Part shown: in pieces, positions 1,940 to 57,776 of the stretch | How the letters are laid out: each line of letters opens with the position of its first letter | How positions within the stretch are numbered: position 1 is the first letter of the stretch | Source: Gammaproteobacteria bacterium | GTDB taxonomy: Bacteria; Pseudomonadota; Gammaproteobacteria; Tethybacterales; Persebacteraceae | Direction: 5' to 3' | Assembly: GCA_965221835.1 (NCBI GenBank) | Contig: OZ244916.1 | Coordinates: 654,477 to 718,476, forward strand | Length of the DNA stretch: 64,000 nt | Notes under the pieces: generated by a model | The model's input: only the letters and a program-made list of their open reading frames with translations | What the model was told of the DNA's origin: nothing | The model's database searches: none | Position numbers and translations under genes: made by a program

Positions 1940-2834
1940 TTATTTTAACCAATCTTCCAGCGTTACGCCCCAACTTTTCGGCGGCGTTTCGGCGGATACT
2001 TCAAAATCGGAAAAAGAACGCGGCGGCGCGGCGGCGTTTTTGCGCGCTACTTTTACCAAATCAAATAACTGATGCGCCGGTCTGTTGCCGAGTTTGCCAT
2101 CGTGCTTAAAAACATACAAACCGCGGACGGACATCATCCCGCGCGCCGCCGAACGGTCGTGTTCAAACATATTCCGCAACGCCTCCCAAAACAACGCCAA
2201 ATCTTCATCGGAAAAACCGATCCGCCGCCAAATGCGCCGAAATAAATCCGTGCGCGCGATACAGCGAATATGGAATCGTGTGCTTCCGCCCCATCGTCCG
2301 ATTGTCGCCGCTTTGTTTTTGCGCCTCCTTTTCGGTGGTGACCGCCATCCGCGTAATGGAATGTTCCAGCGAAACAATCGGCGCAACCGAACGCGCAAAA
2401 GTCATCTGCACCGGTCCGCGCACCTGTCCGCAATTGACGCCGGTGGACATCACCGCGCCGAAAGTGCGAATGTCGTAAAAATTGCCGCACATCCATTTGC
2501 GGAGATTTTTCGGTTCCCTTTCCGTTTTTGTCAACGCGTCATGGGCGCGCTGGTGTTGATTGTTCAGCACTGCCTTTTCTTTTACATAAATTTCATGGCG
2601 CGGCGACTCGCCGATTTTATAACTCTTCGGCTTGCCGTCCGCTTCGTCTTCCGCAAACTTCATTTCCACATAGTTGCGAATTTTGCGTTTCAGGCATACA
2701 TCGGTTACCAGCCCGTCGCCGGTTTCCGCGTCTATGCGCGGGTGATTTCCCGCATCGGGGTCGCCGTTCGGATTGCCGTCCAGCACATCAAAAAGCAATA
2801 CAAAATCATGCCGGTTTTGGATGGGATTATTCAT
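1940..2834 (-). pseudogene. cas7: Type I-C Cas7 (Csd2) with a broken reading frame. The N-terminal 209 aa and the C-terminal roughly 90 aa lie in different frames.
   Basis: The N-terminal part, [56 protein letters not shown], is a classic Csd2 start. That frame stops at 2205 after [15 protein letters not shown] second frame covering 2398 to 1940 carries the expected continuation, [27 protein letters not shown]...LFDLVKV. The junction lies near 2218-2226 in the sequence gcggcggatcgg. A strong RBS (aaggag) precedes the ATG at 2834. Confidence 0.7.
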
Positions 2835-4590
2835 TGTTATTCTCCTTTTTTGTGAAAAAATTCTGCCGCTGATGATAGTAGCCGAGGGCAAACAGCCCCT
2901 GCTCCTGCATTGTCAGTTGCGGCGGGAAATTGGCGAGTTTGCACATAATTTCGCCGACGGTTTTTTGGCGATTGACGGCAAGCCCGGGTTTGGCGTCTTT
3001 TAGTTTACTCAGATGGTGTTGGTGCAATTTTATCAGCGCGGGAAATGCCGCACCCGGCGACGATGACGCCGCACCGTAATAGCGGTCGCGAATGGTGGCG
3101 TTTATGCCGGGATTCGCGTCTTCTTGCAATTTTTCCAGCGCGGCAAACAACGCGCCCAGCCAATACCCCGGCGATTTAACTTCCGGATCCAGTTTCATAT
3201 CAATCTCCTTGTTGAGTTGCAAAGCGGGCGGCAATTGTTCCGCCCGATAAAATCGGTTTATGCAACCGCGCAAAAGCGCGGCGCGGTCCGGCGAAACATT
3301 TTCGCGTCGTTCCCCGTATTTTACGCCCGCGCGGCAACGATTGACCGCCGCCAGAAATGCCGTGCGCGGATACGGCGAATTTTGCAATATCGCCTGCATC
3401 ATTTCGCCGCCCAAATTGGGCGGGATATTGTCCGCCTTGCCTTGCACCGCCGTGGCAACCAGCAAACGAAATAGCCCCGGCGGGCGGGAGTCGTCCGCGC
3501 CGTCAATTTTAATGTCGTCAAAATGCCGCCGAATTCTTTCCGCAACATCTCCTACCGTTCCGTCGTGCCAAAAACGCACCGTCAACCGCACGCGATTCGC
3601 CCACAATCCCAGCACATAAAACGGCAAATCGCCTTCCGCGGCGTATGTTTTTCCGCTTCGGGGCGATTCGTACAATTTTTTCACCGCGGCAGTCCGGCGG
3701 TCGGGATTGTCTTCGGATGCGCCGCCAAATAAAACGCTAAAATCGGTTTCCAGTAGCGCGTCCTTTCCCGCCCAAAACACGGCGGTAGAATCGCCGACCT
3801 TGATTTTTTGTTCGCCAGTCAGCAGCATATTTAACGCGGCGGTGTATTTGTACATTGTCGCTTTTCCCACGGACGCATTTTTTGCCTTTGTTTTGCCGTA
3901 CGAATTAAACGCCGATTGCTTAAACGCGATAACTCCCGCGCCCGCCCCCGCACCGTTCACGCCGCGCACCGCGTTGTGCATATCCGGTATTTCGTCTTCG
4001 TCTCCGGAAATAATGCACCGTCCGTCCGGTTTCGCCGCCGCGCCGACATTTCGTTTTATTTCCGCCGCAACCGGCGGCGAATCGGAAACTATCGCATAAT
4101 CCGAATTTGCCAACTGAAACGACAAATACGCCAGACGCAAACGTTCATCACAAATTTCCGCCCACATCGGATCGCCGCGCACCGCGTCCATATCGGGATT
4201 TTGCAGAAACGCGACAACCGCGCGAACGCCCGAATCTTCGGCGACACTCTCCGGAATTTGCGTTTGTATTTTCCGCAAAAAACTTTCGCGGCGTTTTTTT
4301 GATACGGCGGCGGATGTGCCGCCGACTCCGAAAATATATTCCAAATTGTCGTACAATAAATTCGGATTTATCGCGCTTCCGCCGCGACACGACGGTTTAA
4401 TTGCAACTCTAACCGTATACTTCCCGCCGCGGTCTTTCGCATCGGCGCGGGTATCCTTAAAACCGGCAAACTCGCCGCTTTCGTTCAACACAATCAAAAA
4501 CGGAATTGGTTGATGTTCAAATCCCAGCGGCGGCATTTCGCCGCGCAACATTTTGCGGTCGTAATATTCCGTCAACGCGCGAACAGTCAT
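2827..4590 (-). CDS. cas8c: Type I-C Cas8c (Csd1) large subunit.
   Basis: The 587-aa translation begins [41 protein letters not shown], matching Csd1. It is positioned between cas5c and cas7, as in a canonical I-C operon. Confidence 0.85.
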
Positions 4591-5237
4591 TTGCGAATTT
4601 CCGCGCTATCGGGCGGCGGCAGATGAATCACGCCGTTTTGCATTTTCGCCCGAAACATCATCGGTTTCATTTCATCGGCAAAATCAATGTCGTACAACAT
4701 AAATCCCAAATCGCGGGAGTCGTCAATCGCCGCCCGTGCCGCCGCTTTCGTTCCCGGCGTTGCCAGACAAAACGCCGCCGAAAATTCGCGACATCCCAAA
4801 TACGGCTGATTAAAACACTGCCCTTTTTCCGCCCGCCGCGCAAATATTTCGGCGAATTTAACAATGCCGTCGCCCTCGCCCGCCTTGTCGGTCAATTGCA
4901 ACCGCGCATGCAAACGATACGCCACATCGCGCAAAAACAATCCCGCCCGCTGTTGCCGGTCTTCTTCCACATAAATTCCGCAACCCGCTTTGGACGGCGG
5001 ACGCGCAACACTCCCCACTTCGTTGCGGCGAAGATTAATCCACCGAATCGGTTTTAGTACTTCAATTTTTTCGGGAATCCACCTGATTGCCGGTTTCCAC
5101 ATAATCGCCTCAAAAATCGCCCGCGCCGCGGACGGAGTCATCACATCATAAGAAACGCGTTCCACTTTCATTTCCGGGCGCGTAAAGCAGGCAAAATCGC
5201 CCCAAACTTTCAGGCAAAAAGACGGCGACGATTTCAT
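4587..5237 (-). CDS. cas5: Type I-C Cas5c (Csd5d), the pre-crRNA-processing Cas5.
   Basis: The 216-aa translation contains FCLKVWGDFACFTRPEMKVERVSYDVMTPSAARAIFEAIMWKPAIRW, the Cas5d signature. Its stop overlaps the cas8c start by 4 bp. Confidence 0.9.
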   Translation of the reverse strand: MKSSPSFCLKVWGDFACFTRPEMKVERVSYDVMTPSAARAIFEAIMWKPAIRWIPEKIEVLKPIRWINLRRNEVGSVARPPSKAGCGIYVEEDRQQRAGLFLRDVAYRLHARLQLTDKAGEGDGIVKFAEIFARRAEKGQCFNQPYLGCREFSAAFCLATPGTKAAARAAIDDSRDLGFMLYDIDFADEMKPMMFRAKMQNGVIHLPPPDSAEIRK

Positions 5238-5245
5238 AACCGCGA

Positions 5246-7510
5246 TTATACTCCGCCCCGCCCGGGAATCGCAAACCCCGTTTCGTCCGAATAATTCGCC
5301 GCGCCCGATTCCGTCAGCACAAAAACGCCCGCCGTCAATTCTTCTATTTCGCCGCGACCGCGCATTTCGTCAAAATCTTTTTCCGGCACAGAAACCGAAA
5401 ACCGTTGCAACCCGCGCATCGTTGCACGCAAACGCGCACCTTCCGCCATCTGCAACGTTTTCCGCATTTTTTCGGAACCGGTATACCAAACGATAACCGG
5501 AATTTTTCCGTCTTCTTCAATAAACCGGAACTTCGCCGCCGCATCCCGAAATTGCATCTCGTCCGAACTCAACAGCCGGGAAATTCCTTTGTCATCAAAA
5601 TTGCGAATATCCCGATACAACAATTCAAAATAGCGGCGAAACTTGTCCGGCGTAAACATATCGTCGTCCGCGGCGAACAATTGCCGCATTTCTTGCACGA
5701 CCTGCCACCCCTGACGGATAAAACCCGGCGGCGGTATTTTCGGCGGCATAAACACGCGCAACTCGCCGCCGTCCGGCAATTTTCCTTCGCGGTTGCATCT
5801 TCCCGCCGCCTGCGCAATAGAATCCAATCCCGCCAGCGCGCGCCAGACGACCGGAAAATCAATATCCACGCCCGCCTCTATCAATGTCGTACTGACGACA
5901 ATCACTGGTTCGTTATTTTTCAATCGCGCCTTGATTTTTGCAATTTGTCGCGCGCGATGTTCGCCGCACATCAGCGCGGACAAATGAAAACATTCGGCGG
6001 CACCCCGTCCGATTGCGGACATTCGCGCCTTCGTTTTTTCGTACAAATCGCGGCACTCGTTCCGGCTGTTGACGATGCAAAGCGCGGATTTGTTTTCGCA
6101 AAGTTTTACGGCGATTTCGTCCCATTCCGTTTTTGACAAATCCCAGCGCGCGCGTACGCGCCGGAATTGGTCGCGGCGGAACAATGTTTCCGGCTGTTCG
6201 CAAACTTCGCGCGGCGCGCTGTTCAACGCCGCTTTCGCTTTCCGCAACGATTCCGCCCGAAACGCCGGTTGCGTAGCGGTGCAAAAAACAAAACTCGTTT
6301 TGTAAAACGCCGTCAATTCTTCAATCGCCGCCAAAGTCGGCGCGATCAATTCCAGCGGCAACGTTTGCGCTTCGTCCAAAATAACGACCGAATCGGCGAT
6401 GTTATGCAGTTTGCGACATTTCCCCGGCGCGGCGGCGAAAAGCGATTCAAAAAATTGCACATTCGTCGTAATGACAATCGGTGCGTCCCAATTTTCGGTT
6501 GCCAGCCGATTTTTGTACGCCGCGCGGCGCGCCTGTTCGTCTTCGGATTCTTCGCCGCGAATGTTGGAATGATGTTCCACGACATTGTCGTCGCCGAAAA
6601 CGCCGCGAAAAATATCGGCGGTTTGTTCAATAATGGAAGTGAACGGAATGGCGTAAATAATTCGCCGTTTGCCGTGCGCCGCGGCATGCGCCAGCGCGAA
6701 CGCCATGGACGACAATGTTTTGCCGCCGCCGGTCGGCACCGTGAAACTGAACAATCCCGGCGACTGTTCGCCCGCCGCAACGCATTGCGTCAAAATGTCG
6801 GCGCGGATTTTGTCAATCGCCGTTTTTTCCGCGTCCGTCTTAAAACCTTTCATATAGCCGTCAAACTTTTCGCGCAACGCGGAAATTTCCGCATAATCGC
6901 CGCGCACCGGCGGAACAGGCGAAGAAGATTTTTCCGCATGCAACCGGTCGGCATCCACCAAACACGAAAACAACATTCGCGTCCACAAAGAAAGTCGAAT
7001 CCAAGAAGGGGCGTTTTCATGTCCGGTGTTGCGGCGCAAACACGCCAAACCGGGAATTGTCGCGTTGCGCACAAATTCGGGAAAATGTTTCTCGTTTTTG
7101 CGCGCCTTATCCAGCCATTCGCCTTCGCGGAAAATTCGTTCTTCCAAACTCGCGCCTTTCGCATCGCCGTCTCCGCAATTCGGCAAGCCGGTGTGATGTC
7201 CGAAAATGACAAACGACAACAACTTCGCCGCGCATTTTTCTTCCGCATTTTTTGCGAGAAAGTTTTGCGCGTACAATCCGCCCGCCGAGGAATGTTTAAT
7301 TTTTCCGCGCGGCGCATTAATTTCGCCGCGTAAATATTGTTGAAACTCATCGCCGTATTTGCCGAGGTCGTGCAATCGCCCCGCCAACGTCGCCCATTCT
7401 TTCGCGCCAAAAACGGCGGCAAATCCTCCCGCATTTTTACCGACCGAATTTAAATGTTCCGCCAAATCGCATTTGGTGTTTTCGGAAAAATGCGAAAAAA
7501 ATGTTTTCAC
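5246..7510 (-). CDS. cas3: Cas3 HD-nuclease/helicase with a GTG start.
   Basis: The 754-aa translation has an N-terminal HD domain (HDLGKYGDEFQ), a Walker A motif (VPTGGGKT) and a DEAD-like VILDEAQ motif. The GTG start lies 4 nt after the mpl stop codon. Confidence 0.9.
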   Translation of the reverse strand: MKTFFSHFSENTKCDLAEHLNSVGKNAGGFAAVFGAKEWATLAGRLHDLGKYGDEFQQYLRGEINAPRGKIKHSSAGGLYAQNFLAKNAEEKCAAKLLSFVIFGHHTGLPNCGDGDAKGASLEERIFREGEWLDKARKNEKHFPEFVRNATIPGLACLRRNTGHENAPSWIRLSLWTRMLFSCLVDADRLHAEKSSSPVPPVRGDYAEISALREKFDGYMKGFKTDAEKTAIDKIRADILTQCVAAGEQSPGLFSFTVPTGGGKTLSSMAFALAHAAAHGKRRIIYAIPFTSIIEQTADIFRGVFGDDNVVEHHSNIRGEESEDEQARRAAYKNRLATENWDAPIVITTNVQFFESLFAAAPGKCRKLHNIADSVVILDEAQTLPLELIAPTLAAIEELTAFYKTSFVFCTATQPAFRAESLRKAKAALNSAPREVCEQPETLFRRDQFRRVRARWDLSKTEWDEIAVKLCENKSALCIVNSRNECRDLYEKTKARMSAIGRGAAECFHLSALMCGEHRARQIAKIKARLKNNEPVIVVSTTLIEAGVDIDFPVVWRALAGLDSIAQAAGRCNREGKLPDGGELRVFMPPKIPPPGFIRQGWQVVQEMRQLFAADDDMFTPDKFRRYFELLYRDIRNFDDKGISRLLSSDEMQFRDAAAKFRFIEEDGKIPVIVWYTGSEKMRKTLQMAEGARLRATMRGLQRFSVSVPEKDFDEMRGRGEIEELTAGVFVLTESGAANYSDETGFAIPGRGGV

Positions 7511-11738: not shown

Positions 11739-12251
11739 ATGCAAAAAAATATGTCCGAAATGCGCGCGCGATTTCGCCGCTATCTATCTTCGCTTTTGCT
11801 TGCAGAATTGTGCCGGGGAATGGCGCTGACTTTCCGGCAGATGTTCCGCCGCAAAATCACCGTGCATTTTCCCGAAGAAAAAACACCGCGCAGCCCCCGA
11901 TTTCGCGGACTGCACGCCTTGCGCCGCTATCCGAACGGCGAAGAACGATGCATCGCTTGCAAATTGTGCGAGGCGGTTTGTCCGGCGATGGCGATTCATA
12001 TCGCTTCCGAACAACGCGAAGACGGCAGCCGCCGCACTACTCAGTACGACATTGATTTAACCAAATGCATTTTTTGCGGAATGTGCGAAGAGGCGTGTCC
12101 CGTTGATGCAATTGTAGAAACGCATGTTTTGGAATATCACGGCGAACGGCGCGGCGATTTGTACTACACAAAAGAAATGCTGCTCGCCGTGGGCGATAAA
12201 TACGAAGCGGAAATCGCTTCCGCCCGCAAAACCGATGCCGCTTATCGCTAA
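11739..12251 (+). CDS. nuoI: NADH-quinone oxidoreductase subunit I (2x[4Fe-4S] ferredoxin). It is isolated from any nuo operon.
   Basis: The translation contains [31 protein letters not shown] and [18 protein letters not shown], and is near-identical to NuoI over its full length. A TATAAT box lies about 20 bp upstream. Confidence 0.85.
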
Positions 12252-14418
12252 ACTTTTCCGCGCAACGGCGGCGGCGATTGTTCTCGGCATATTGTCGCCA
12301 TCTTTCGCCGAACCCGTCTCGGCGTATTCGCCGGAAAAAGAAATAGAAGAATTGGAACAGCGGTTTGTGCGCCAAGAAATTCTCGCCTTGCAGCGGGTGG
12401 AAGATGTGGAAACGCGGATTGAAATATTGGACCGCCATTTCAATCGCGTTTTTTTGATTTTGGGATTATCGGCGGCACTTGCGTTGATGCTTTTCGCCGC
12501 CCATCAACGCAGTCGCAATCGCTTAAATACCGAACGCTTAAATCGTGCCGTGCGCGAAGCCGATATGTTGCGAGACGATATTCGCCGCGAATTGCATCGC
12601 CCGGAAACGGAGTTTTTGCGCATCGGACATTTTTTGCGAAGAATGATGCGCGAATCGCTGGACGCCAAACCCGCCGAACGACATTTTTCGGAAATTCGTG
12701 CCATTATTCGCGACCCTAATGTGCCGGTGTCGCTGCATTATATGGCGCAAATTTTGCTTTTTGAACACGATTCGCGTTGGCGAGATGCCGAACATGTTTT
12801 GGAACAACTTCGGCAAATGGATCCCGAAGATCCTTTCGTACTTTTGCATTTATTTCATGTACATACCCGCATTTCCGAAGGTTCGGGCGATTCGTACGAC
12901 CGCAAACGCCATCGTCAAACCGCAAATCAATACTACGCCCAATTTGCAGTTATCGCGCAAACAAAAGACATTCCCGCCTCTCCGGCAACGGCGAAAAAAT
13001 CCCCGCCCGCCCCGAAAACGCCGCCCCCGGCAATTGCCGCCGCCGAATCCGAATCCGAAAACGCTTCCAAAACTGCCGAAAACGATTCCGAATTTGATTC
13101 CGAATCCGCCGCCGAAAACATTACCAAAAACGCCGCTGAATCCAAATCCAAATCCGCCGCCGAATCCGAATCCAAATCCGCCGCCGAATCCGAATCCGAA
13201 TCTGCATCCAAAATTGCCGAAAACGTTTCTGAATCTGATTCCGAATCCGTTGCCAAATCCGCCGCCGAATCTAAATCCAAAACTTCCGAAAACGTTTCTG
13301 AATCTGATTCCGAAAACATTGTCAAAAACGCCGCTGAATCCGAATCCAAATCCGCCGCCGAATCTAAATCCAAAACTTCCGAAAACGTTTCTGAATCTGA
13401 TTCCGAATCTGCTTCCGAAAACATTGTCAAAAACGCTGTTGAATCTGAATCCAAAACTTCCGAAAATGTTTCTGAATCTGATTCCGAAAACATTGCCGAA
13501 AACGTTTCTGAATCTGAATCCAAAACTTCCGAAAAAGATTCCGAAAACGATTCTGAATCTGAATCCGAATCTGGTGCGGAAGTGCAAACGAATATTTCCA
13601 AACCGCAATCGGAAATTGTGCATACAAAACCCGCGCAATCGCCGCCGGTTAAAACCGAATTCGCTCCTCCTCAAATTGTACCGCCCAAACCGCCGAAAAC
13701 GGCGGAAACAAAGCCCGCTCCGAAAATGCCGCCGTCATTGCCGTCCGCCGCAAACGGCAAAAAACGTCCCGCCGAAAATTTATTAATGAAAAAAATCGGC
13801 AAACTATCATGGCGGGGAATCGGCGGCGCAATCAAAAACAAAACCGTCAATTTAATCGGCGAAGCAACGAATGTTGCCGGAAAAATTAACAACGGCGCGA
13901 ACGGCGACATCCCGCCGTTTTTGCCGGTGCCCGCAATTTCCGAATTGCCGGAAAAAAAAGGAACGGCAGAAAGCGAAATGTGGAAATGCATTCGCGCCGG
14001 TGATTTGGCAATGGCGCAAGCCGCCGCAGTTGCGAATATGCGTCATCGCAATCGTTTGATAGACCGCGCGTTAATTTCTTATGCGCAAGCGCAAGGACAC
14101 AAAACTAACGAAACTTTGTATTTGAATTGGGGATTGTCTTTGCTCGGCAAGGCGTTGCATTTGCCGCTCAAAAAACGCGAACCATTTTTTAATGCCGCCA
14201 TAGATAAATTTTTGGCGGGCAATGTTATCAGTCCGCACCGTTTTGATTTTTCGCTGGCGACTTTATACGCTATCATCGGGCGCGAAACCGAGTGCAAACA
14301 ATGGCTTGCCACAGCGCGCGAATCGGGAACGCTGAATTTGGAATCGTTGCATCATGCGCCCGATTTTGACGGCGTGCGCAATCAGCCGTGGTTTGCCGAA
14401 TTCATGCGCGACGAATGA
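12235..14418 (+). CDS. Hypothetical membrane protein. It has an N-terminal signal/anchor, a coiled coil, a second transmembrane segment, an acidic Ser/Glu-rich tandem-repeat region, a Pro/Lys-rich linker and a C-terminal helical (TPR-like) domain.
   Basis: The 727-aa reading starts at the ATG at 12235, overlapping the nuoI end. Hydrophobic segments [14 protein letters not shown] and [18 protein letters not shown] are present. Repeats of the form [31 protein letters not shown] recur. A proline-rich stretch, [28 protein letters not shown], follows. Confidence 0.6.
13020..13600 (+). repeat. Imperfect in-frame tandem repeats of roughly 69-bp units, encoding Ser/Glu/Lys-rich acidic repeats.
   Basis: The motif gaatc(c/t)gaatccaaa(a/t)c... 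recurs many times. Antisense and alternative-frame ORFs here are artefacts of this repeat: 12698-13786 (PNPNPP-rich) and 12850-13674 (GFGFGG-rich). Confidence 0.8.
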
Positions 14419-26599: not shown

Positions 26600-26757
26600 A
26601 ACATTCCTTTTCAATTCCGATATCCGCAAAAACTAATTATACCCGAATCCCGCCGCCGTTAAATGGTAATCGTGCGGGGTGATTTTCATTGTTCATCATT
26701 TCCGTGGCGGGCGGAGTCGGGGGCTTAATGGTGGGAAGATTTGTTTTGGTCATTTTT

Positions 26758-33875: not shown

Positions 33876-34747
33876 TGCGGCGCGGAGTTTTATTGGCGGG
33901 CGGCGCAAACACGCGATTGTATCCGGCGACATTGGCAACGGCGAAATCGCTACTACCGATATACGACAAGCCGCTGATTTATTATCCGCTTGCGTCATTG
34001 ATGGATGCGGGGGTGCGCGAAGTTTTGATTATCGCCGCGCCTGCGCATCTCGAATCGCACCGCCGCCTTTTCGCGGACGGCGCAAAATGGGGAATGCATT
34101 TTTCATATTTGCCGCAAGAAAAACCGCGCGGAATCGCGGACGCATTTATACTCGGCGCGGATTTTATCGGCGGCGAATCGTCCGCGCTGGCGTTGGCGGA
34201 CAATATCCATTGCGGCAACGGCATGCGAAAAATGTTGCGACAAGCGGCGGCGCAAACAGATGGCGCAACGGTGTTCGTCCGGTGCGTAAAAGATCCGGAA
34301 CGATTCGGCATTGCAGAATTCGGCGAAGACGGACGGGTGTCGGGTTTGGAAGAAAAACCGGAAAATCCCAAATCGCCTTTTGCCATCACCGGAATATATT
34401 TTTACGATTCGCAAGTTTGCGATATTGCGGCGAATTTGTCGCCGTCTGCGCGCGGCGAGTTGGAAATTACCGATGTCAATCGCGAATATTTGCGGCGCGG
34501 CGAATTGCGGGCGGAAAAAATGCCCCGCACCGCCGCATGGTTTGACGCCGGCACGCCCGACAGTTTAACGGAATCGGCGAATTTCATTCGCAAAACGCAA
34601 ATGCGTAAACAAAACATTATCGCCGCTCCCGAAACAATCGCTTTCCGAAATAAATGGATTACGCGCGAAGAACTCCGCCGCCTCGCCGCCGCCCTCGGCA
34701 AAACCGAATACGCCGCCGCCTTACAAAAAATCGCCGAAAACGAATAA
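33872..34747 (+). CDS. rmlA: Glucose-1-phosphate thymidylyltransferase.
   Basis: The translation contains GGANTRLYPATLATAKSLLPIYDKPLIYYPL, the RmlA signature. Confidence 0.9.
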   Translation: MMRRGVLLAGGANTRLYPATLATAKSLLPIYDKPLIYYPLASLMDAGVREVLIIAAPAHLESHRRLFADGAKWGMHFSYLPQEKPRGIADAFILGADFIGGESSALALADNIHCGNGMRKMLRQAAAQTDGATVFVRCVKDPERFGIAEFGEDGRVSGLEEKPENPKSPFAITGIYFYDSQVCDIAANLSPSARGELEITDVNREYLRRGELRAEKMPRTAAWFDAGTPDSLTESANFIRKTQMRKQNIIAAPETIAFRNKWITREELRRLAAALGKTEYAAALQKIAENE

Positions 34748-34793
34748 AACTTTCACCCGCCCCTTTTCCATTCCCGCGAAAATTGGGCGAGAA

Positions 34794-34930
34794 GATAAAT
34801 TTTTTTTTCGAACATTTTCGGATAAATTAAATTTGCACCATTTCCGCAACTCGTTTTTTATAGATAAATTTTTTTCGGACATTTTCGGATAAAATTAAAT
34901 TTGCACCATTTCCGCAACTCGTTTTTTATT
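34794..34930. repeat. Direct tandem duplication of a 68-bp unit. The two copies carry T9 and T7 homopolymer tracts.
   Basis: Two near-identical units read gataaat(T7-9)cg(a/g)acattttcggataaa(a)ttaaatttgcaccatttccgcaactcgtttttta. They are followed by a TATAAT box at about 34947. Confidence 0.8.
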
Positions 34931-34957
34931 CGCGGCGAAATTTATTATAATAGCGAA

Positions 34958-35135
34958 ACCACATCACGCGAGATCTTTCCGACTCTGTCGGGTGGCTCGT
35001 GAATACAATACCCGATAACGGAGGGAATAATTAACCCGCCGGGGGAATAAACGGGGACATTCAGGAAGGTCTGCGTGTGATGTGGTAATCCTCCCGACTT
35101 TTTGGGGGACTTTGTCATTACCGCAAAGGACTACT
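34958..35135 (+). promoter_or_regulatory. Long structured 5' leader of the second MTase-HNH gene. A long-range stem (ACCACATCAC at 34958-34967, GTGATGTGGT at 35067-35076) encloses about 100 nt. The leader shows partial sequence similarity to the leader of copy 1.
   Basis: A 10-bp perfect long-range inverted repeat is present, with internal hairpins (CCGACTCTGTCGG). The motifs CCGACTC and TAACGG.GGG.ATAATT also occur in the leader of copy 1, which spans 26757-26600 on the minus strand. Confidence 0.4.
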
Positions 35136-36461
35136 GTGAACCAAGCGCAAATAGAGAACCGGACTCTGTTTACCGGCGACAATTTGGAAGTGATGCGCGC
35201 CGTCAATTCCGAGACGGTGGATTTGATTTATCTGGATCCGCCGTTTAACAAAAAATTCGTTTTTCCGATTGGAAAAGGCGATTCCGCCGAATTCGGATTT
35301 AAAGATATTTGGGGATGGGATAGCGCACCGGATGAAGGCAATCCGTATTTGCCGTACGCGGAGTTGGCGGCGTTTGACGAACTTGTGGCGGCGGAAGCGG
35401 ACGGCAATCCGTTAATAGACCGCAAGATGGCGAAAAACACCGTCCGCTTTTTGGAAACGATGGGACAAATCGCCGGCGAAGCGGAAATGGCGTATTTGTC
35501 GTTTATGGCGGCGCGTTTAATTGAAATGTGGCGGTTGCTGAAACCGACCGGCAGCATTTATTTGCACTGCGACCAAACAATGTCGCACTCGCTTAAACTT
35601 TTGATGGATATTGTTTTCGGTGAAAATAATTTCCGCAACGAAGTTATTTGGTGTTATGTCGGTGGCGGAAACGCAAAAAACGCTTTTAACAAAAAACATG
35701 ACACGGTCTTTTTTTACACGAAACAAAAAAATCGTTCGTTTTTTAATTGGAAAGATGTTGCTATGCCATATAATAATATTCCGCTTACGGCGCAATGGCG
35801 CAAAGGGTTTACAAACAGACAAGAAGCGGAAAAACGCGCCTTGGCAAAATATAAAGATGGCAAAGCGCGATATGATTGGTGGACGGATATTCCATCTTAT
35901 GGAACGGCTACGCGGAATCCCGAAAGAACCGGCTACCCGACTCAAAAACCGGTTTTGCTTTTGGAAAGAATCATAAAAGCGTCCAGCAACGAAGGCGATT
36001 TTGTTCTTGACCCGTTTTGCGGATGCGCGACAACTTGCGTTGCCGCCGAAAGATTAAACCGCCATTGGTGCGGAATTGATGTTGCCGAAAAAGCGGCGCA
36101 ACTCGTTCGCGCCCGCCTTCTTGCCGAAACAAAACAAGGCAAACTCGGCGACAAAGTACCGCAAGTGCATCACCGCGATTTCGGCAAAGGCGATTTTCCG
36201 ATGCGCACCGATTTGGGCGATTCGCGCAGTAAAAATATCCGCATAGTTTTGTTTGGAAATCAGGAAGGCAAATGCAATCTTTGTAAACGCCGTTTTGATT
36301 TGCGCGATTTTGAGGACGATCATATTATTCCGCGCAAAAAAGGCGGACCGGATGTTGACCGCAATTTGCAATTGCTTTGCAGTTCGTGCAACCGAATTAA
36401 ATCCACGCGCACAATGGAACAAGCCCGCAAACGACTGCGCGAATTGGGATACGCCGCTTAA
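35136..36461 (+). CDS. DNA methyltransferase (DPPF, beta-class) fused to a C-terminal HNH nuclease. This is copy 2, with a GTG start.
   Basis: It is about 70% identical at the protein level to the 25274-26599 product. The N-terminal 200 aa are near-identical, and the DNA is about 85-90% identical there. HNH motif: CNLCKRRFDLRDFEDDHIIPRKKGGPDVDRNLQLLCSSCN. An RBS (aaagga) lies 5 nt before the GTG. Confidence 0.8.
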   Translation: MNQAQIENRTLFTGDNLEVMRAVNSETVDLIYLDPPFNKKFVFPIGKGDSAEFGFKDIWGWDSAPDEGNPYLPYAELAAFDELVAAEADGNPLIDRKMAKNTVRFLETMGQIAGEAEMAYLSFMAARLIEMWRLLKPTGSIYLHCDQTMSHSLKLLMDIVFGENNFRNEVIWCYVGGGNAKNAFNKKHDTVFFYTKQKNRSFFNWKDVAMPYNNIPLTAQWRKGFTNRQEAEKRALAKYKDGKARYDWWTDIPSYGTATRNPERTGYPTQKPVLLLERIIKASSNEGDFVLDPFCGCATTCVAAERLNRHWCGIDVAEKAAQLVRARLLAETKQGKLGDKVPQVHHRDFGKGDFPMRTDLGDSRSKNIRIVLFGNQEGKCNLCKRRFDLRDFEDDHIIPRKKGGPDVDRNLQLLCSSCNRIKSTRTMEQARKRLRELGYAA

Positions 36462-42121: not shown

Positions 42122-43555
42122 TCAGAAACGATGAATCGCGTTTATTTGGAATCTGGCGTTTTCGGTGAAATCTTTTGCGTTTTCCCAGCGGAATCCGGCG
42201 GAGGGGAGAATCGTCCAGCCGTCATAACGGAAATTGCCTTGCAGATTTAACTCGTTGCGAGTTTCCGTTTCGCCTTTGTCATATTCGGAGTGCAGGCGAT
42301 AGACGGGGGAAAACATCATTAAACTCCCGTCTATATCCGCCGACAGCATAAATGAGGAGTTAGCCGTCTCGCCTGCAACGGATTCGGAAAATGCCGCTGT
42401 AAATAAATCGCCGTTATATTTTCCGCCCGATGTGTAGCGGAAATCACCGAAATCGCCGTTTGCGTTTGTTTGTTTTGCGGTGTAATACAAATGCCAATTG
42501 TCTTTGCGGAAATCCGCCCGTCCGCCGACATTTGCGTAATAGCCGCTTTCGGTTATGGAATAGCCGAAATCGGGCGACATATTAAAAGACGGAACGCCGC
42601 CTGCCAAAAATACCGCTATCACTCCGACAGCCAAAAGTCCGGTAGCGGTATTGATAGATTTTACCCTTCTCTCCTTATTATCCGCCCGATTTTGCGGTGT
42701 TTGCGTTGTCGGATTTTGCGTTTCCGGCGGATTAGTTCCCGTTTCCGTGTTGCCGTCTTGCGGATTTTCCGTTTCCGTGTTGTCGTCTTGCGGATTTGTT
42801 TGACAAATTCCGGCGTCGTCTCTTGTTTCAGTATCCAAACATGCGTCTACGCAAACGCCGTTAACAAAATCGGGAGTCGCCCCCGGGCAATCGGCGGCGG
42901 ATTCAATTGCACGGCAAGAAAGTCCGCCTGTTTCCAAAATCGGCAATTCATCGGTTGCACATTCGCATGCATCGCCCGCCTCGTTTAAGTTTGCAGTCGT
43001 GCCATCGCAAAAATCGGTTTCAATTATCGTATCGCAAGTTGTCGTTCTTCCCGCATCCGCCGCCGTGAAAGTAAACACATCGGTCAGCGGGATAGCATTT
43101 TCGGTTATATCCCGTGCAACGACAAGACAATCGCAGTTTGCGGGATCTGCACACTGATTCATTGCATGTGTGTGTGCCTCTGCTGCGGTGTCGCCTAGTC
43201 CCTCAATAGTTGCTACATCTCCTAAATTGGGTATGGATAAATCTGCATAAACGGCAAAATATTCCTCACCATTAACATTTCTTGCTACTGCTGAACAAGT
43301 ACTAGCAGTATCAGGATGAGATTGACATGTTAAAGCTGAATGAGCTACTGCAAGACGTTCCGTTTCTCCCATAACCTCCTCTGCAGGATAGCCGACAGCA
43401 ACACCGATAATAAGTATTGTTGGGTCTGGGCTGCCCGGACTAAAATCAGTATCAAATCCGGCAGTAGCAGCCCCTTCTGCATTTGCGGAAATGTTAGACA
43501 ATCCCGCCGCAAAAAAGACGGCGGCGATGATGATTTTATTGATTGTGTTTTTCAT
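42122..43555 (-). CDS. Hypothetical secreted or surface protein. It has a signal peptide, a Cys/Asp/Thr-rich central region, and a C-terminal region rich in aromatic/Gly beta-strands that ends in RF, which is outer-membrane-barrel-like.
   Basis: The start is at MKNTINKIIIAAVFFAAGLSNISANA with a strong RBS (gaggag). The C-terminus, ...FRWENAKDFTENARFQINAIHRF, has a terminal Phe. The listed 632-aa ORF over-extends into the upstream repeat array. Confidence 0.6.
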   Translation of the reverse strand: MKNTINKIIIAAVFFAAGLSNISANAEGAATAGFDTDFSPGSPDPTILIIGVAVGYPAEEVMGETERLAVAHSALTCQSHPDTASTCSAVARNVNGEEYFAVYADLSIPNLGDVATIEGLGDTAAEAHTHAMNQCADPANCDCLVVARDITENAIPLTDVFTFTAADAGRTTTCDTIIETDFCDGTTANLNEAGDACECATDELPILETGGLSCRAIESAADCPGATPDFVNGVCVDACLDTETRDDAGICQTNPQDDNTETENPQDGNTETGTNPPETQNPTTQTPQNRADNKERRVKSINTATGLLAVGVIAVFLAGGVPSFNMSPDFGYSITESGYYANVGGRADFRKDNWHLYYTAKQTNANGDFGDFRYTSGGKYNGDLFTAAFSESVAGETANSSFMLSADIDGSLMMFSPVYRLHSEYDKGETETRNELNLQGNFRYDGWTILPSAGFRWENAKDFTENARFQINAIHRF

Positions 43556-43684
43556 GGTTTTGCTCCTCTGATTAAAAATGTCTGCGAAAGTATAACACAT
43601 TCCGCCCGAATCAACAAAAAAACGGGCGGGTTCGGCAAGAAATGCGTAAATTGCTGATTTCCCGCCTTTTTTCTGCATTTCCGT

Positions 43685-43936
43685 GCGTTCGGAAATGTTT
43701 TCAGAGCGTTCCAAAATGTTTTCAGAGCGTTCGGAAATGTTTTCAGAGCATTCCGAAAAGTTTTCAGAGCGTTCGGAAATGTTTTCAGAGCATTCCGAAA
43801 TGTTTTCAGAGCATTCCGAAATGTTTTCAGAGCGTTCGGAAAAGTTTTCAGAGCGTTCGGAAATGTTTTCGGAGCGTTCGGAAATGTTTTCAGAGCATTC
43901 GGAAATGTTTTCAGAGCGTTCGGAAAAGTTTTCCGA
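43685..43936. repeat. Twelve tandem copies of a 21-bp unit (GCGTTCGGAAATGTTTTCAGA and variants), 130-380 bp upstream of the 42122-43555 gene.
   Basis: The units are head-to-tail with an exact 21-bp period and minor variants (gcattccgaaat, gcgttccaaaat). The ORFs 43642-44052 and 43683-43967 are translation artefacts of this array. Confidence 0.9.
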
Positions 43937-44035
43937 GACCTCGCAAAACATTTGCGGGGTTTTGTGAACGCCCTTTTTTGCCGAAAATTTTCGGCTGTGG
44001 TACAATTGGCATTCGCACATTTGGAATTGAAATTA

Positions 44036-56657: not shown

Positions 56658-57776
56658 AAATTCCGAATTTCATCGGAATGGTAGAAGTTGGAAATTAGGA
56701 AAATAAAATTCACCATTCCCGTGAACGCGGCGGAATTCCGCAAAAAAACCCCGTCATTCCCGCGAAAGCGGGAATCCATTACGGGCGATTAATTTTAGAA
56801 TTTCCGCAAATTTTACGCGAAAATTAAATTTGAAAATTCCCGCATTTTTTCGCAAAAAACGAAGTGAAAGCGCGAATTTTACGCGAAAATTAAATTTGAA
56901 ATTCCCGCGAATTTTAAGCGAAAAACCCCCGTCATTCCCGCGAAAGCGGGAATCCATTACGGACGATTAAATTTGCAATTCCCGCAAATTTTACGCGAAA
57001 ATTAAGTTTGAAATTCCCGCACATTTTTTTGTGAAAAACGAGGTGAAGGCGGGAATTTGTCGGTAAAAATGGATTCCCGCTTTCGCGGGAATGACGGCGG
57101 GAATCCGCACATTTTACGCGAAAATTAAGTTTGGAATTTCCGCAAATTTTACGCAAAAAACCCCGTCATTCCCGCGAAAGCGGGAATCCATTACGGGAGA
57201 TTAATTTTAGAATTTCCGCGAATTTTACGCGAAAATTAAGTTTGGAATTTCCGCGAATTTTTTCGCAAAAAACGAGGTGAATGCGAGGGTTTGTCAGTAA
57301 AAATGGATTCCCGCTTTCGCGAGAATGACAAGGTGAAACCGCAAATTTTATGCGAAAATTAAGTTTCGCGAATTTTACGCAAAAAAACCCCGTCATTCCC
57401 GCGAACGCGGGAATCCATTACGGGAGATTAATTTTAGAATTTCCGCAAATTTTACGCGAAAATTAAGTTTGGAATTTCCGCATTTTTTCGCAAAAAACGA
57501 GGTGAAAGCGCGAAAACGAGGTGAATGCGGGAATCCATTTTGTCGCGAAAATTAAGTTTGGATTCCCGCTTTCGCGGGAATGACGGCGGGAATCCGCACA
57601 TTTTACGCGAAAATTAAGTTTGGAATTTCCATATTTTTTCGCAAAAAACGAGGTGAATGCGGGATTTTGTCGGTAAAAAATTCCCGCTTTCGCGGGAATG
57701 ACAAGGTGAAACCGTGAATTTTAAGAAAAAATTAAGTTTGGAATTTCCGTGCATTTTTTCGCGAAAAGGGTGGGAA
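56658..57776. repeat. NIME-like array of about 1.1 kb. It contains multiple dRS3 units (ATTCCCGCGAAAGCGGGAAT) in both orientations, separated by RS-like blocks of about 100-150 bp.
   Basis: At least 8 dRS3 copies are present. The block GATTAATTTTAGAATTTCCGCAAATTTTACGCGAAAATTAAGTTTGGAATTTCCGC recurs. The many small ORFs here are artefacts. Confidence 0.85.

Follow-up and report, generated by a model that had tools for sequence, protein, structure and literature searches.

Two families of small structured RNA come closest to the element considered here, which is the leader of a gene for a DNA methyltransferase fused to an HNH nuclease (MTase-HNH) in a 64,000-nucleotide (nt) stretch of a gammaproteobacterial contig (OZ244916.1, positions 654,477 to 718,476), referred to below as the window. 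The c4 RNA belongs to the immI region of phages P1 and P7 and is represented in Rfam by C4 (RF01695) and c4-a1b1 (RF03163), both within clan CL00128. In the phage P1 record the elements run in the order promoter P1c4, 'putative a1 and b1 target sites', the 77-nt C4 RNA, a2/b2, icd and ant, with b2 overlapping the Shine-Dalgarno sequence of icd. In the Rfam C4 consensus a long closing helix, beginning with G after UAU, encloses two hairpins, of which the second has a variable loop (b') and is followed by a linker (a'); aCC comes after the 3' strand of this helix. Maturation of the c4 5' end has been attributed to RNase P (as cited in PMC4919922). The other family, sRNA-Xcc1 (RF02221), was found as an expressed 88-nt RNA in Xanthomonas (PMC2996969) and is described in the literature as a trans-acting, virulence-associated small RNA (sRNA). 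It precedes symE in Xanthomonas integron cassettes and an ORF6N protein in APSE phages, occurs as five clustered copies in Xylella fastidiosa Temecula1 and adjoins C4 and isrK matches in X. fastidiosa De Donno (PMC12189769 for both strains). In the literature that we searched, we found no link of sRNA-Xcc1 to c4 or to the control of antirepressors.

The window carries two MTase-HNH genes, and the leader of the second (copy 2) is a structural variant within the sRNA-Xcc1 family, despite a score below the Rfam threshold. We consider that it probably operates as a c4-type antisense module in which a strand at the 5' end (A) masks the antisense strand (A'). The analysis shows family membership, conservation, the covariation of A with A' and of helices P1 and P2, and complementarity between the antisense segment and the ribosome-binding site in most relatives. 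Three things are new in the window variant, namely a 23-nt hairpin insertion, the self-masking strand A and a cargo class, MTase-HNH. The leader and its gene are laid out as follows, with P1 and P2 denoting helices of the RNA throughout and the phage always named as such.

34946-34951, + strand: -10 box TATAAT, with transcription expected to start at about 34958.
34959-34980, + strand: strand A, the putative 5'-terminal antisense mask and counterpart of phage P1 a1/b1, complementary to A'.
34979-34991, + strand: small hairpin CCGAC-UCU-GUCGG, which sequesters the 5' strand of helix P1 (from the fold and the alignment).
34987-34995, + strand: 5' strand of helix P1, GUCGGGUGG (from the Rfam alignment and covariance model R1).
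34996-35055, + strand: P2 domain, with a helix (34996-35000 with 35051-35055), the core AAUACAAUACCCGA (35002-35015) and GGGGAAUAA (35042-35050), and an inserted hairpin (35019-35041).
35064-35085, + strand: strand A', the antisense segment, sitting where canonical sRNA-Xcc1 has the P3 loop and linker.
35090-35103, + strand: 3' strand of helix P1, CCUCCCGAC (35090-35098), then UUUUU (35099-35103; from the Rfam alignment and R1).
35110-35135, + strand: ribosome-binding region, with a hairpin CUUUG/CAAAG (35110-14 with 35124-28), its loop (35115-35123) containing AUUACC, and the Shine-Dalgarno sequence AAGGA (35126-35130).
35136-36461, + strand: the putatively regulated gene, an N6/N4 DNA methyltransferase with a C-terminal HNH nuclease and a GTG start (from Pfam).

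A leader of around 177 nt follows the TATAAT box, which had been noticed near 34947 in an earlier sequence-only reading and is indeed present, and leads up to the GTG start of copy 2. The fold of the entire leader has an energy of -69 kcal/mol (z = -4.1), a stability that 0 of 200 shuffled sequences equalled, and its dominant helix is one of 22 base pairs (bp) between A and A' that includes three G-U pairs and a single bulge. The earlier reading had described a perfect 10-bp long-range stem with its 3' arm at 35067-35076 (AGGTCTGCGT). The stem is real, but its 5' arm at 34958-34967 (ACCACATCAC) pairs with 35077-35086 (GTGATGTGGT), so that the 3' arm had been placed wrongly by 10 nt, and as part of the 22-bp helix the stem is stronger than was described. 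The further hairpins and G-rich segments that had been seen inside the leader are there too, among them the CCGACUCUGUCGG hairpin at 34979-34991. Leader structure exceeds chance, with no occurrence of the core pattern expected in shuffles and a helix that covaries fully in homologues. The fold of the + strand is better than that of the - strand by about 11 kcal/mol (-57.7 kcal/mol for the latter), which fits an RNA transcribed from the + strand. An extended -10 element (TGn plus hexamer) lies 6-7 nt 5' of strand A in five homologous leaders, where the hexamer is TATAAT, or TATACT in locus L093; a strict sigma-70 scan returned no -35/-10 pair at the 34946-34951 promoter. The 3' region of helix P1 has an alternative pairing, a hairpin at 35091-35108 with GGGGG. 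An intrinsic terminator, formed either by this hairpin or by helix P1 with its five U residues, was considered and rejected, as terminator-like matches occur only at chance frequency. Directly 5' of the leader promoter there is a 68-nt tandem repeat (34793-34929, two copies in the window), each unit of which holds a promoter-like TTGCAC...TATAGA stretch. Across nine contigs of the same species this repeat is present in 1-3 copies and the leader is invariant save for one single-nucleotide polymorphism, adjacent to the Shine-Dalgarno sequence, in three of them; the strain set is uninformative on covariation because the leader does not vary.

At gathering thresholds, a search of the whole window with Rfam models gave two tRNAs only and nothing at the leader; ARAGORN likewise reported these two tRNAs, without any tmRNA. 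The permissive Rfam scan, one of the checks that the sequence-only reading had proposed, aligned 34987-35103 (+) to RF02221 with 22.8 bits (E = 0.18), a sub-threshold match to a related family and not a hit to an unrelated element. This alignment places P1 (GUCGGGUGG with CCUCCCGAC) and P2 in register. Inside P2, the sRNA-Xcc1 core is matched letter for letter (AAUACAAUACCCGA at 35002-35015 and GGGGAAU at 35042-35048), and the window has a single occurrence of the core pattern, against none in 100 shuffles. The low score arises because a gap of 26 nt, which holds the 23-nt hairpin in the GAAA loop, replaces a modelled 2 nt, and because of the P3 region. Another proposed check was a covariance model, and one (R1) was built from eight related leaders with the window excluded and searched against the window plus the loci collected during the analysis. 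It recovers the leader at 34987-35102 with 74.5 bits (E about 1e-12) as the sole match in 64 kb, scores canonical sRNA-Xcc1 at 33-40 bits and intermediate forms at 41-70 bits, and gives no match in six loci with leaderless MTase-HNH genes. In an alignment of 46 distinct family sequences P1 is 99% paired, with compensatory changes in six of its nine pairs, and the three inner pairs of P2 covary strongly; none of 500 shuffles reached the observed covariation, and slid controls collapse. The window RNA shares with sRNA-Xcc1 the core, the positions of P1 and P2, recognition by one covariance model, a promoter directly 5' and a controlled gene directly 3'. It differs from it in the hairpin within the GAAA loop, in the substitution for P3 of a 22-nt strand whose partner is a new strand at the 5' end, in an added small hairpin that competes with P1, in a UUUUU tail instead of RCC(C/A) and in its cargo, a chromosomal MTase-HNH gene rather than an antirepressor or symE. 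A pattern scan for insertion-type cores found none in viral contigs. In genome contigs it found five; L091, and perhaps L090, are the only ones that look real, and R1 confirmed the former but not the latter. BLAST of the leader against plasmids and phages gave short matches at chance level only.

The MTase-HNH fusion itself is widespread, with at least 8000 candidates in a protein search, all at E < 1e-30. We read the upstream DNA of twelve homologues, together with locus L106, which was found by pattern. The same leader plan is present in five independent genes (P0002, P0003/P0005, P0006, P0007 and L106), and the first four groups are 67-72% identical to copy 2; the leader-bearing loci are L093, L095/L111, L106, L112 and L113/L114, and the nearest named relatives are metagenome-assembled genomes labelled Gammaproteobacteria bacterium. 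From 5' to 3' the shared plan consists of the extended -10, strand A at the expected start, a small hairpin CCCGA-loop-GUCGGG, the 5' strand of P1, P2 and the core with its inserted hairpin, A', the 3' strand of P1, a short hairpin and the ribosome-binding site. The insertion hairpin is present in L093, L095, L106, L112 and L113 with differing sequences, while the small hairpin is invariant (CCCGA/UCGGG) in all seven aligned MTase-type leaders and so offers no covariation test of its pairing. The sequences of A and A' are unlike between loci, yet mutually complementary in each, as three examples illustrate.

Window: A CCACAUCACGCGAGAUCUUUCC, A' GGAAGGUCUGCGUGUGAUGUGG.
L093: A ACUACGAGAAUGCCAAGG, A' CCUUGGUAUUUCGCGUAGU.
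L095: A GGACUACCAAAUUCAAAGAACA, A' UGUUCUUUGCAUUUGGUAGUCC.

Strand A covaries completely in L093, L095, L106, L112 and L113 and in L100-104. Within the MTase group, cognate A:A' duplexes have energies of -24.5 to -37.5 kcal/mol (the window, by RNAduplex, -37.5 kcal/mol) against about -9 to -24 kcal/mol for non-cognate pairs, and a second subgroup with other downstream genes (L100, L102 and L104) has the same arrangement, with cognate values of -38 to -43 kcal/mol. Over the 64-kb window, A' finds its best target in strand A (-40.8 kcal/mol, compared with -31.6 kcal/mol for the runner-up), and no target in trans within the window, such as the copy-1 ribosome-binding site, stands out besides it.

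If A is the partner of A' at the 5' end, the ribosome-binding site appears to be its partner at the 3' end in most relatives. Measured against shuffles, the match of A' to the Shine-Dalgarno region is significant in seven of nine variants (z -2.8 to -5.0), including four of the six MTase-type leaders (z -2.9 to -5.0), and in L106, L112 and L113 the full-length minimum-energy fold already pairs A' with the ribosome-binding site. In the window, the predicted fold with A removed pairs A' with 35116-35134, across the Shine-Dalgarno sequence. Only one short site there, beside the Shine-Dalgarno sequence, is clearly complementary, namely AUUACCGC (35118-35125, mostly hairpin loop) to GUGGUAAU (35082-35089), a pairing read by eye in place of which RNAduplex chose another register. 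With A present, the predicted fold that contains A:A' and the small hairpin holding the 5' strand of P1 has an energy of -66.8 kcal/mol, as against -49.7 kcal/mol when P1 is enforced, and in this A:A' state the Shine-Dalgarno sequence (35126-35130) is engaged only within a local hairpin of 5-6 bp. Since the strands interleave (A, P1 5', A', P1 3', with 4 nt between A' and the P1 3' strand), A:A' and P1 are mutually exclusive as full helices. As judged from these predicted folds, the leader is most likely a three-part alternative-pairing device, in which A masks A' and an unmasked A' covers the ribosome-binding site.

Canonical members of the family outside the MTase-HNH group point the same way. 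Searching viral contigs for the core pattern turned up 86 loci, every one canonical, and those tested on RF02221 scored 61.8-79.4 bits. The gene that follows, some 105-120 nt 3' of the RNA, encodes an antirepressor in nearly every case (P22_AR_N, AntA, KilA-N, Bro-N or Rha). In each locus, the loop of the RNA's second hairpin complements a segment ending in the Shine-Dalgarno sequence of the downstream transcript, and the single-stranded linker that follows complements a segment a few bases further 5'. For 42 distinct canonical loci the mean energy between antisense segment and ribosome-binding site is -17.6 kcal/mol for cognate and -11.1 kcal/mol for non-cognate pairs; the cognate pair beats the median non-cognate in 100% of the loci and all 15 sampled non-cognates in 64%. 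Upstream a1/b1-like sites gave no signal in these 42 viral loci, where cognate equals non-cognate, and a second target copy 5' of the RNA is found in L103, L105, L109 and the L100 group. Other cargo includes hydrophobic peptides of 36 residues (L101 and L105), a LuxR-type protein (L103) and membrane proteins. The L101 and L105 peptides (e.g. MVHKPSRSELALVALSRAMLAFTVFAAFQNWSSTPR) resemble type I toxins, and their loci hold target copies both upstream and at the Shine-Dalgarno sequence. Several phages carry an sRNA-Xcc1 that is not annotated: in the Stx2-converting phage Stx2a_WGPS6 (L129, 19431-19476) it lies directly 5' of 'anti-repressor Ant', and others occur in Rac-SA53, Aaphi23, S1249, Moraxella Mcat15-17, Pasteurella and Acinetobacter phages and Stx2-converting phages. 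In L015 two canonical copies stand in tandem (1183-1266 and 1432-1515), 250 nt apart.

Compared with c4, the window has the same order of elements from the promoter to the controlled gene, the same U at -1 and G at +1 of the closing helix (here P1) and, in strand A (34959-34980), a counterpart of the upstream target copy a1/b1; canonical sRNA-Xcc1 moreover seems to control the same class of gene, the antirepressors. Hairpin 1 of c4 differs in being a simple UUCG hairpin, where sRNA-Xcc1 has its conserved core. The window departs further, in that its upstream copy and the antisense strand now form one continuous 22-bp helix, its downstream target is weakly matched, and its tail is UUUUU where L100-L104 and canonical sRNA-Xcc1 have RCC(A/C). 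The Rfam C4 consensus and sRNA-Xcc1 follow the same plan, including which element pairs with which target. As their covariance models do not detect one another, what we claim is shared working and not proven common descent. There is also a looser likeness to type I toxin-antitoxin pairs such as SymE/SymR and to antisense control in restriction-modification systems, in which a small RNA limits translation of a product able to damage host DNA, and sRNA-Xcc1 members also precede symE and the 36-residue hydrophobic peptides. The window RNA differs from these in being encoded in the same orientation, upstream and on the same transcript, not on the opposite strand across the ribosome-binding site. 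Of the functions that the sequence-only reading had put forward, an antisense target comes nearest, although the leader would be better described as an antisense RNA module of sRNA-Xcc1/c4 type together with a 5' copy of its own target. Its broader proposal of a conserved, possibly cis-regulatory leader RNA also holds in that the RNA is conserved and structured and is most likely cis-regulatory.

We infer the direction of regulation, the processing step and any action in trans as follows. Transcription would start at about 34958, 7 nt past TATAAT, and the first 22 nt (A) would pair with A' at 35064-85 while the small hairpin holds the 5' strand of P1. As A' would then be masked and only a weak local hairpin would hold the Shine-Dalgarno sequence, MTase-HNH should be translatable. 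Strand A may then be displaced or cut off, one candidate being an RNase P-type cleavage 5' of P1, as for c4. Once A is gone, the sRNA-Xcc1 fold (P1, P2 and the core) could form and A' would be freed to pair with the ribosome-binding region, either in cis or, from a released sRNA, in trans on new transcripts, so turning translation off. The outcome would be a burst of MTase-HNH expression followed by self-limitation of a potentially toxic methylase-nuclease.

A number of results weigh against this reading of the window leader. With respect to the family, the RF02221 score does not reach the gathering threshold of 53 bits, one of the nine P1 pairs is a U-U mismatch (34987-95 with 35090-98 form 8/9 pairs), P1 is followed by UUUUU where canonical P1 is followed by RCC(C/A), and the canonical P3 hairpin is missing: Rfam forces a stem of 4 bp with a 19-nt loop onto a segment that pairs with A. 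With respect to c4, the C4 (RF01695) and c4-a1b1 (RF03163) models gave no match at E <= 10 in 34700-35300, although phage P1 itself scored 68.8 and 51.0 bits on them, and R1 does not match phage P1 c4, which leaves the link as one of architecture and not of detectable sequence homology. With respect to the antisense step, the pairing of A' with the ribosome-binding region in the window has an energy of -16.6 kcal/mol (z = -1.2), and 12% of shuffles are as good; the ribosome-binding site is not among the best window targets of A', and L093 is as weak as the window in this match. The P1-enforced fold is, in addition, 17 kcal/mol less stable than A:A', so the sRNA-Xcc1 fold may rarely form in the window.

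The paralogue, copy 1 (26599-25280, - strand), is 68% identical to copy 2, and the GTG start of the latter was set by alignment to copy 1 and homologues. Copy 1 sits between a hemA-like glutamyl-tRNA reductase gene and prfA, a position kept in related genomes (L115-L117). The sequence-only reading had taken the leader to be conserved between the two paralogues on the basis of shared motifs (CCGACTC and TAACGG.GGG.ATAATT), which does not stand, as 'TAACGG..GGG.ATAATT' is copy 1's own -10 region. The copy-1 leader (26600-26757, - strand) is a short promoter-proximal untranslated region (UTR) on which the covariance model is silent, as it is in L115-L117. A promoter and short UTR are all that precede copy 1, its orthologues between hemA and prfA, P0016, P0025 and P0032, and homology between the two leaders was rejected on that ground; no such RNA is present at copy 1 or at the homologues P0009, P0016, P0025 and P0032. 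The idea that leader-bearing MTase-HNH genes form one clade was likewise rejected, the neighbour-joining tree being star-like and the presence of the leader patchy. Pfam finds N6_N4_Mtase (2.9e-45) and HNH (1.1e-13) in copy 2 and neither RuvC, PLMP nor other IscB features. The HNH domains of both copies give sub-threshold matches to IscB and Cas9d HNH (E 1e-8 to 2e-11) that are far below full-length cut-offs, the IscB model reaching 34.5 bits against a cut-off of 175 on copy 2, in the HNH region alone.

Several other explanations for the leader can be considered. It is possible, though on balance we think it unlikely, that the leader is a relic or a purely structural 5' UTR whose antisense function has been lost, with A:A' protecting the mRNA 5' end (RNase E, RppH) or setting constitutive translation. 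This would sit well with the exact coincidence, in all six leaders, of the start of A with the predicted start of transcription, with the dominance of A:A' in the predicted window ensemble and with the non-significant match of A' to the window ribosome-binding site. A stabilising helix would, however, need neither P1, P2 nor the invariant core, all of which are intact in every MTase-type leader, and a mere stabiliser would have no need of an A' that matches the Shine-Dalgarno region in four of six such leaders; the near-invariance of the leader across the nine strains, next to a flanking repeat that varies in copy number, also speaks for more than a relic. Considerably less probable is a sensor, in which the core (AAUACAAUACCCGA/GGGGAAUAA) would bind a small molecule or a protein, possibly MTase-HNH itself, and so choose between the A:A' fold and that of A' with the ribosome-binding site. 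The core is (nearly) invariant across phage, integron and chromosomal members while all else varies, and mutually exclusive predicted folds do exist. Against this, the family precedes genes as unrelated as those for antirepressors, SymE, small peptides, MTase-HNH and a LuxR-type protein, with no common metabolite apparent, canonical members are discrete 88-nt sRNAs, and no Rfam riboswitch family matches. For the first of these reasons, and because the variable part of the RNA tracks each gene's own ribosome-binding site, the riboswitch or thermosensor suggested by the sequence-only reading is not supported.

Two further accounts seem to us very improbable. If the RNA were a cofactor or guide for MTase-HNH, its scaffold would bind the protein and its variable segment direct it to nucleic-acid targets, and the element would be an RNA-directed methylase-nuclease. 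The analogy is with HEARO, the omega-RNA of IscB, where a structured RNA likewise adjoins a gene with an IscB/Cas9-like HNH domain; here a variable segment of about 22 nt lies in a structured RNA immediately 5' of the gene, and the HNH domain, with the sub-threshold matches given above, most resembles those of IscB and Cas9d. The window nevertheless differs from that system in several respects: the HEARO family of Rfam does not match, the protein has no IscB feature beyond HNH, the same RNA family is shared with antirepressors, toxins and other unrelated genes, the variable segment matches the 5' end and ribosome-binding site of its own transcript, and copy 1 and four homologues do without such an RNA. 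Comparably doubtful is the idea that the element acts as DNA, whether as the end of a transposon or cassette or, folded in single-stranded form, as a recombination site in the manner of integron attC. The gene and its leader do stand in differing chromosomal neighbourhoods among related genomes, and sRNA-Xcc1 occurs in integron cassettes. The fold is nevertheless strand-asymmetric, and the G-U pairs in its helices would turn into A-C mismatches on the opposite strand, which counts equally against the transposition end offered in the sequence-only reading. The element moreover starts at a conserved promoter and ends at a ribosome-binding site, no matching inverted repeat 3' of the gene turned up (none was looked for), and the experimentally verified member of the family is an RNA.

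Elsewhere in the window, a CRISPR array (1316-1877; 36-nt repeat GTTTCAATCCACACCCGCCCAAATGGACGGGTGAAT, period 65-66) lies beside type I-C cas genes on the - strand (2827-7510), comprising Csd1/Cas8c (2827-4590), Cas5d (4587-5237) and Cas3 (5246-7510). Two repeat-bearing open reading frames have no Pfam family above threshold, one (42122-44020, - strand) with 12.4 copies of an in-frame 21-nt tandem repeat (43678-43937) and the other (12124-14418) with imperfect 69/105-nt repeats (13037-13564). Dense nested repeats of 35, 178 and 234 nt with ATTCCCGCGAAAGCGGGAAT-type palindromes occupy 56744-57533, and REP-like palindromes of this kind also flank the MTase-HNH cassettes in L093, L095 and L111.

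Returning to the c4-type antisense module that we favour, the leader would exemplify control by RNA of a solitary methylase-HNH fusion gene in uncultured Gammaproteobacteria, and would bear on how such selfish or defence genes are kept harmless. The built-in mask A also hints at what the 'putative' upstream a1/b1 sites of phage P1 may do. The c4-like behaviour of sRNA-Xcc1 across the family may, however, be a more useful point than the window variant itself. The family as a whole is indicated to be a portable c4-type module, carried in the leaders of potentially harmful genes, whose ribosome-binding sites it pairs with; among these genes are antirepressors, symE, small hydrophobic peptides and methylase-nucleases. 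An RNA that is annotated in many genomes and yet unannotated in the named phages examined, the Stx2-converting ones included, thereby gains a mechanism open to testing.

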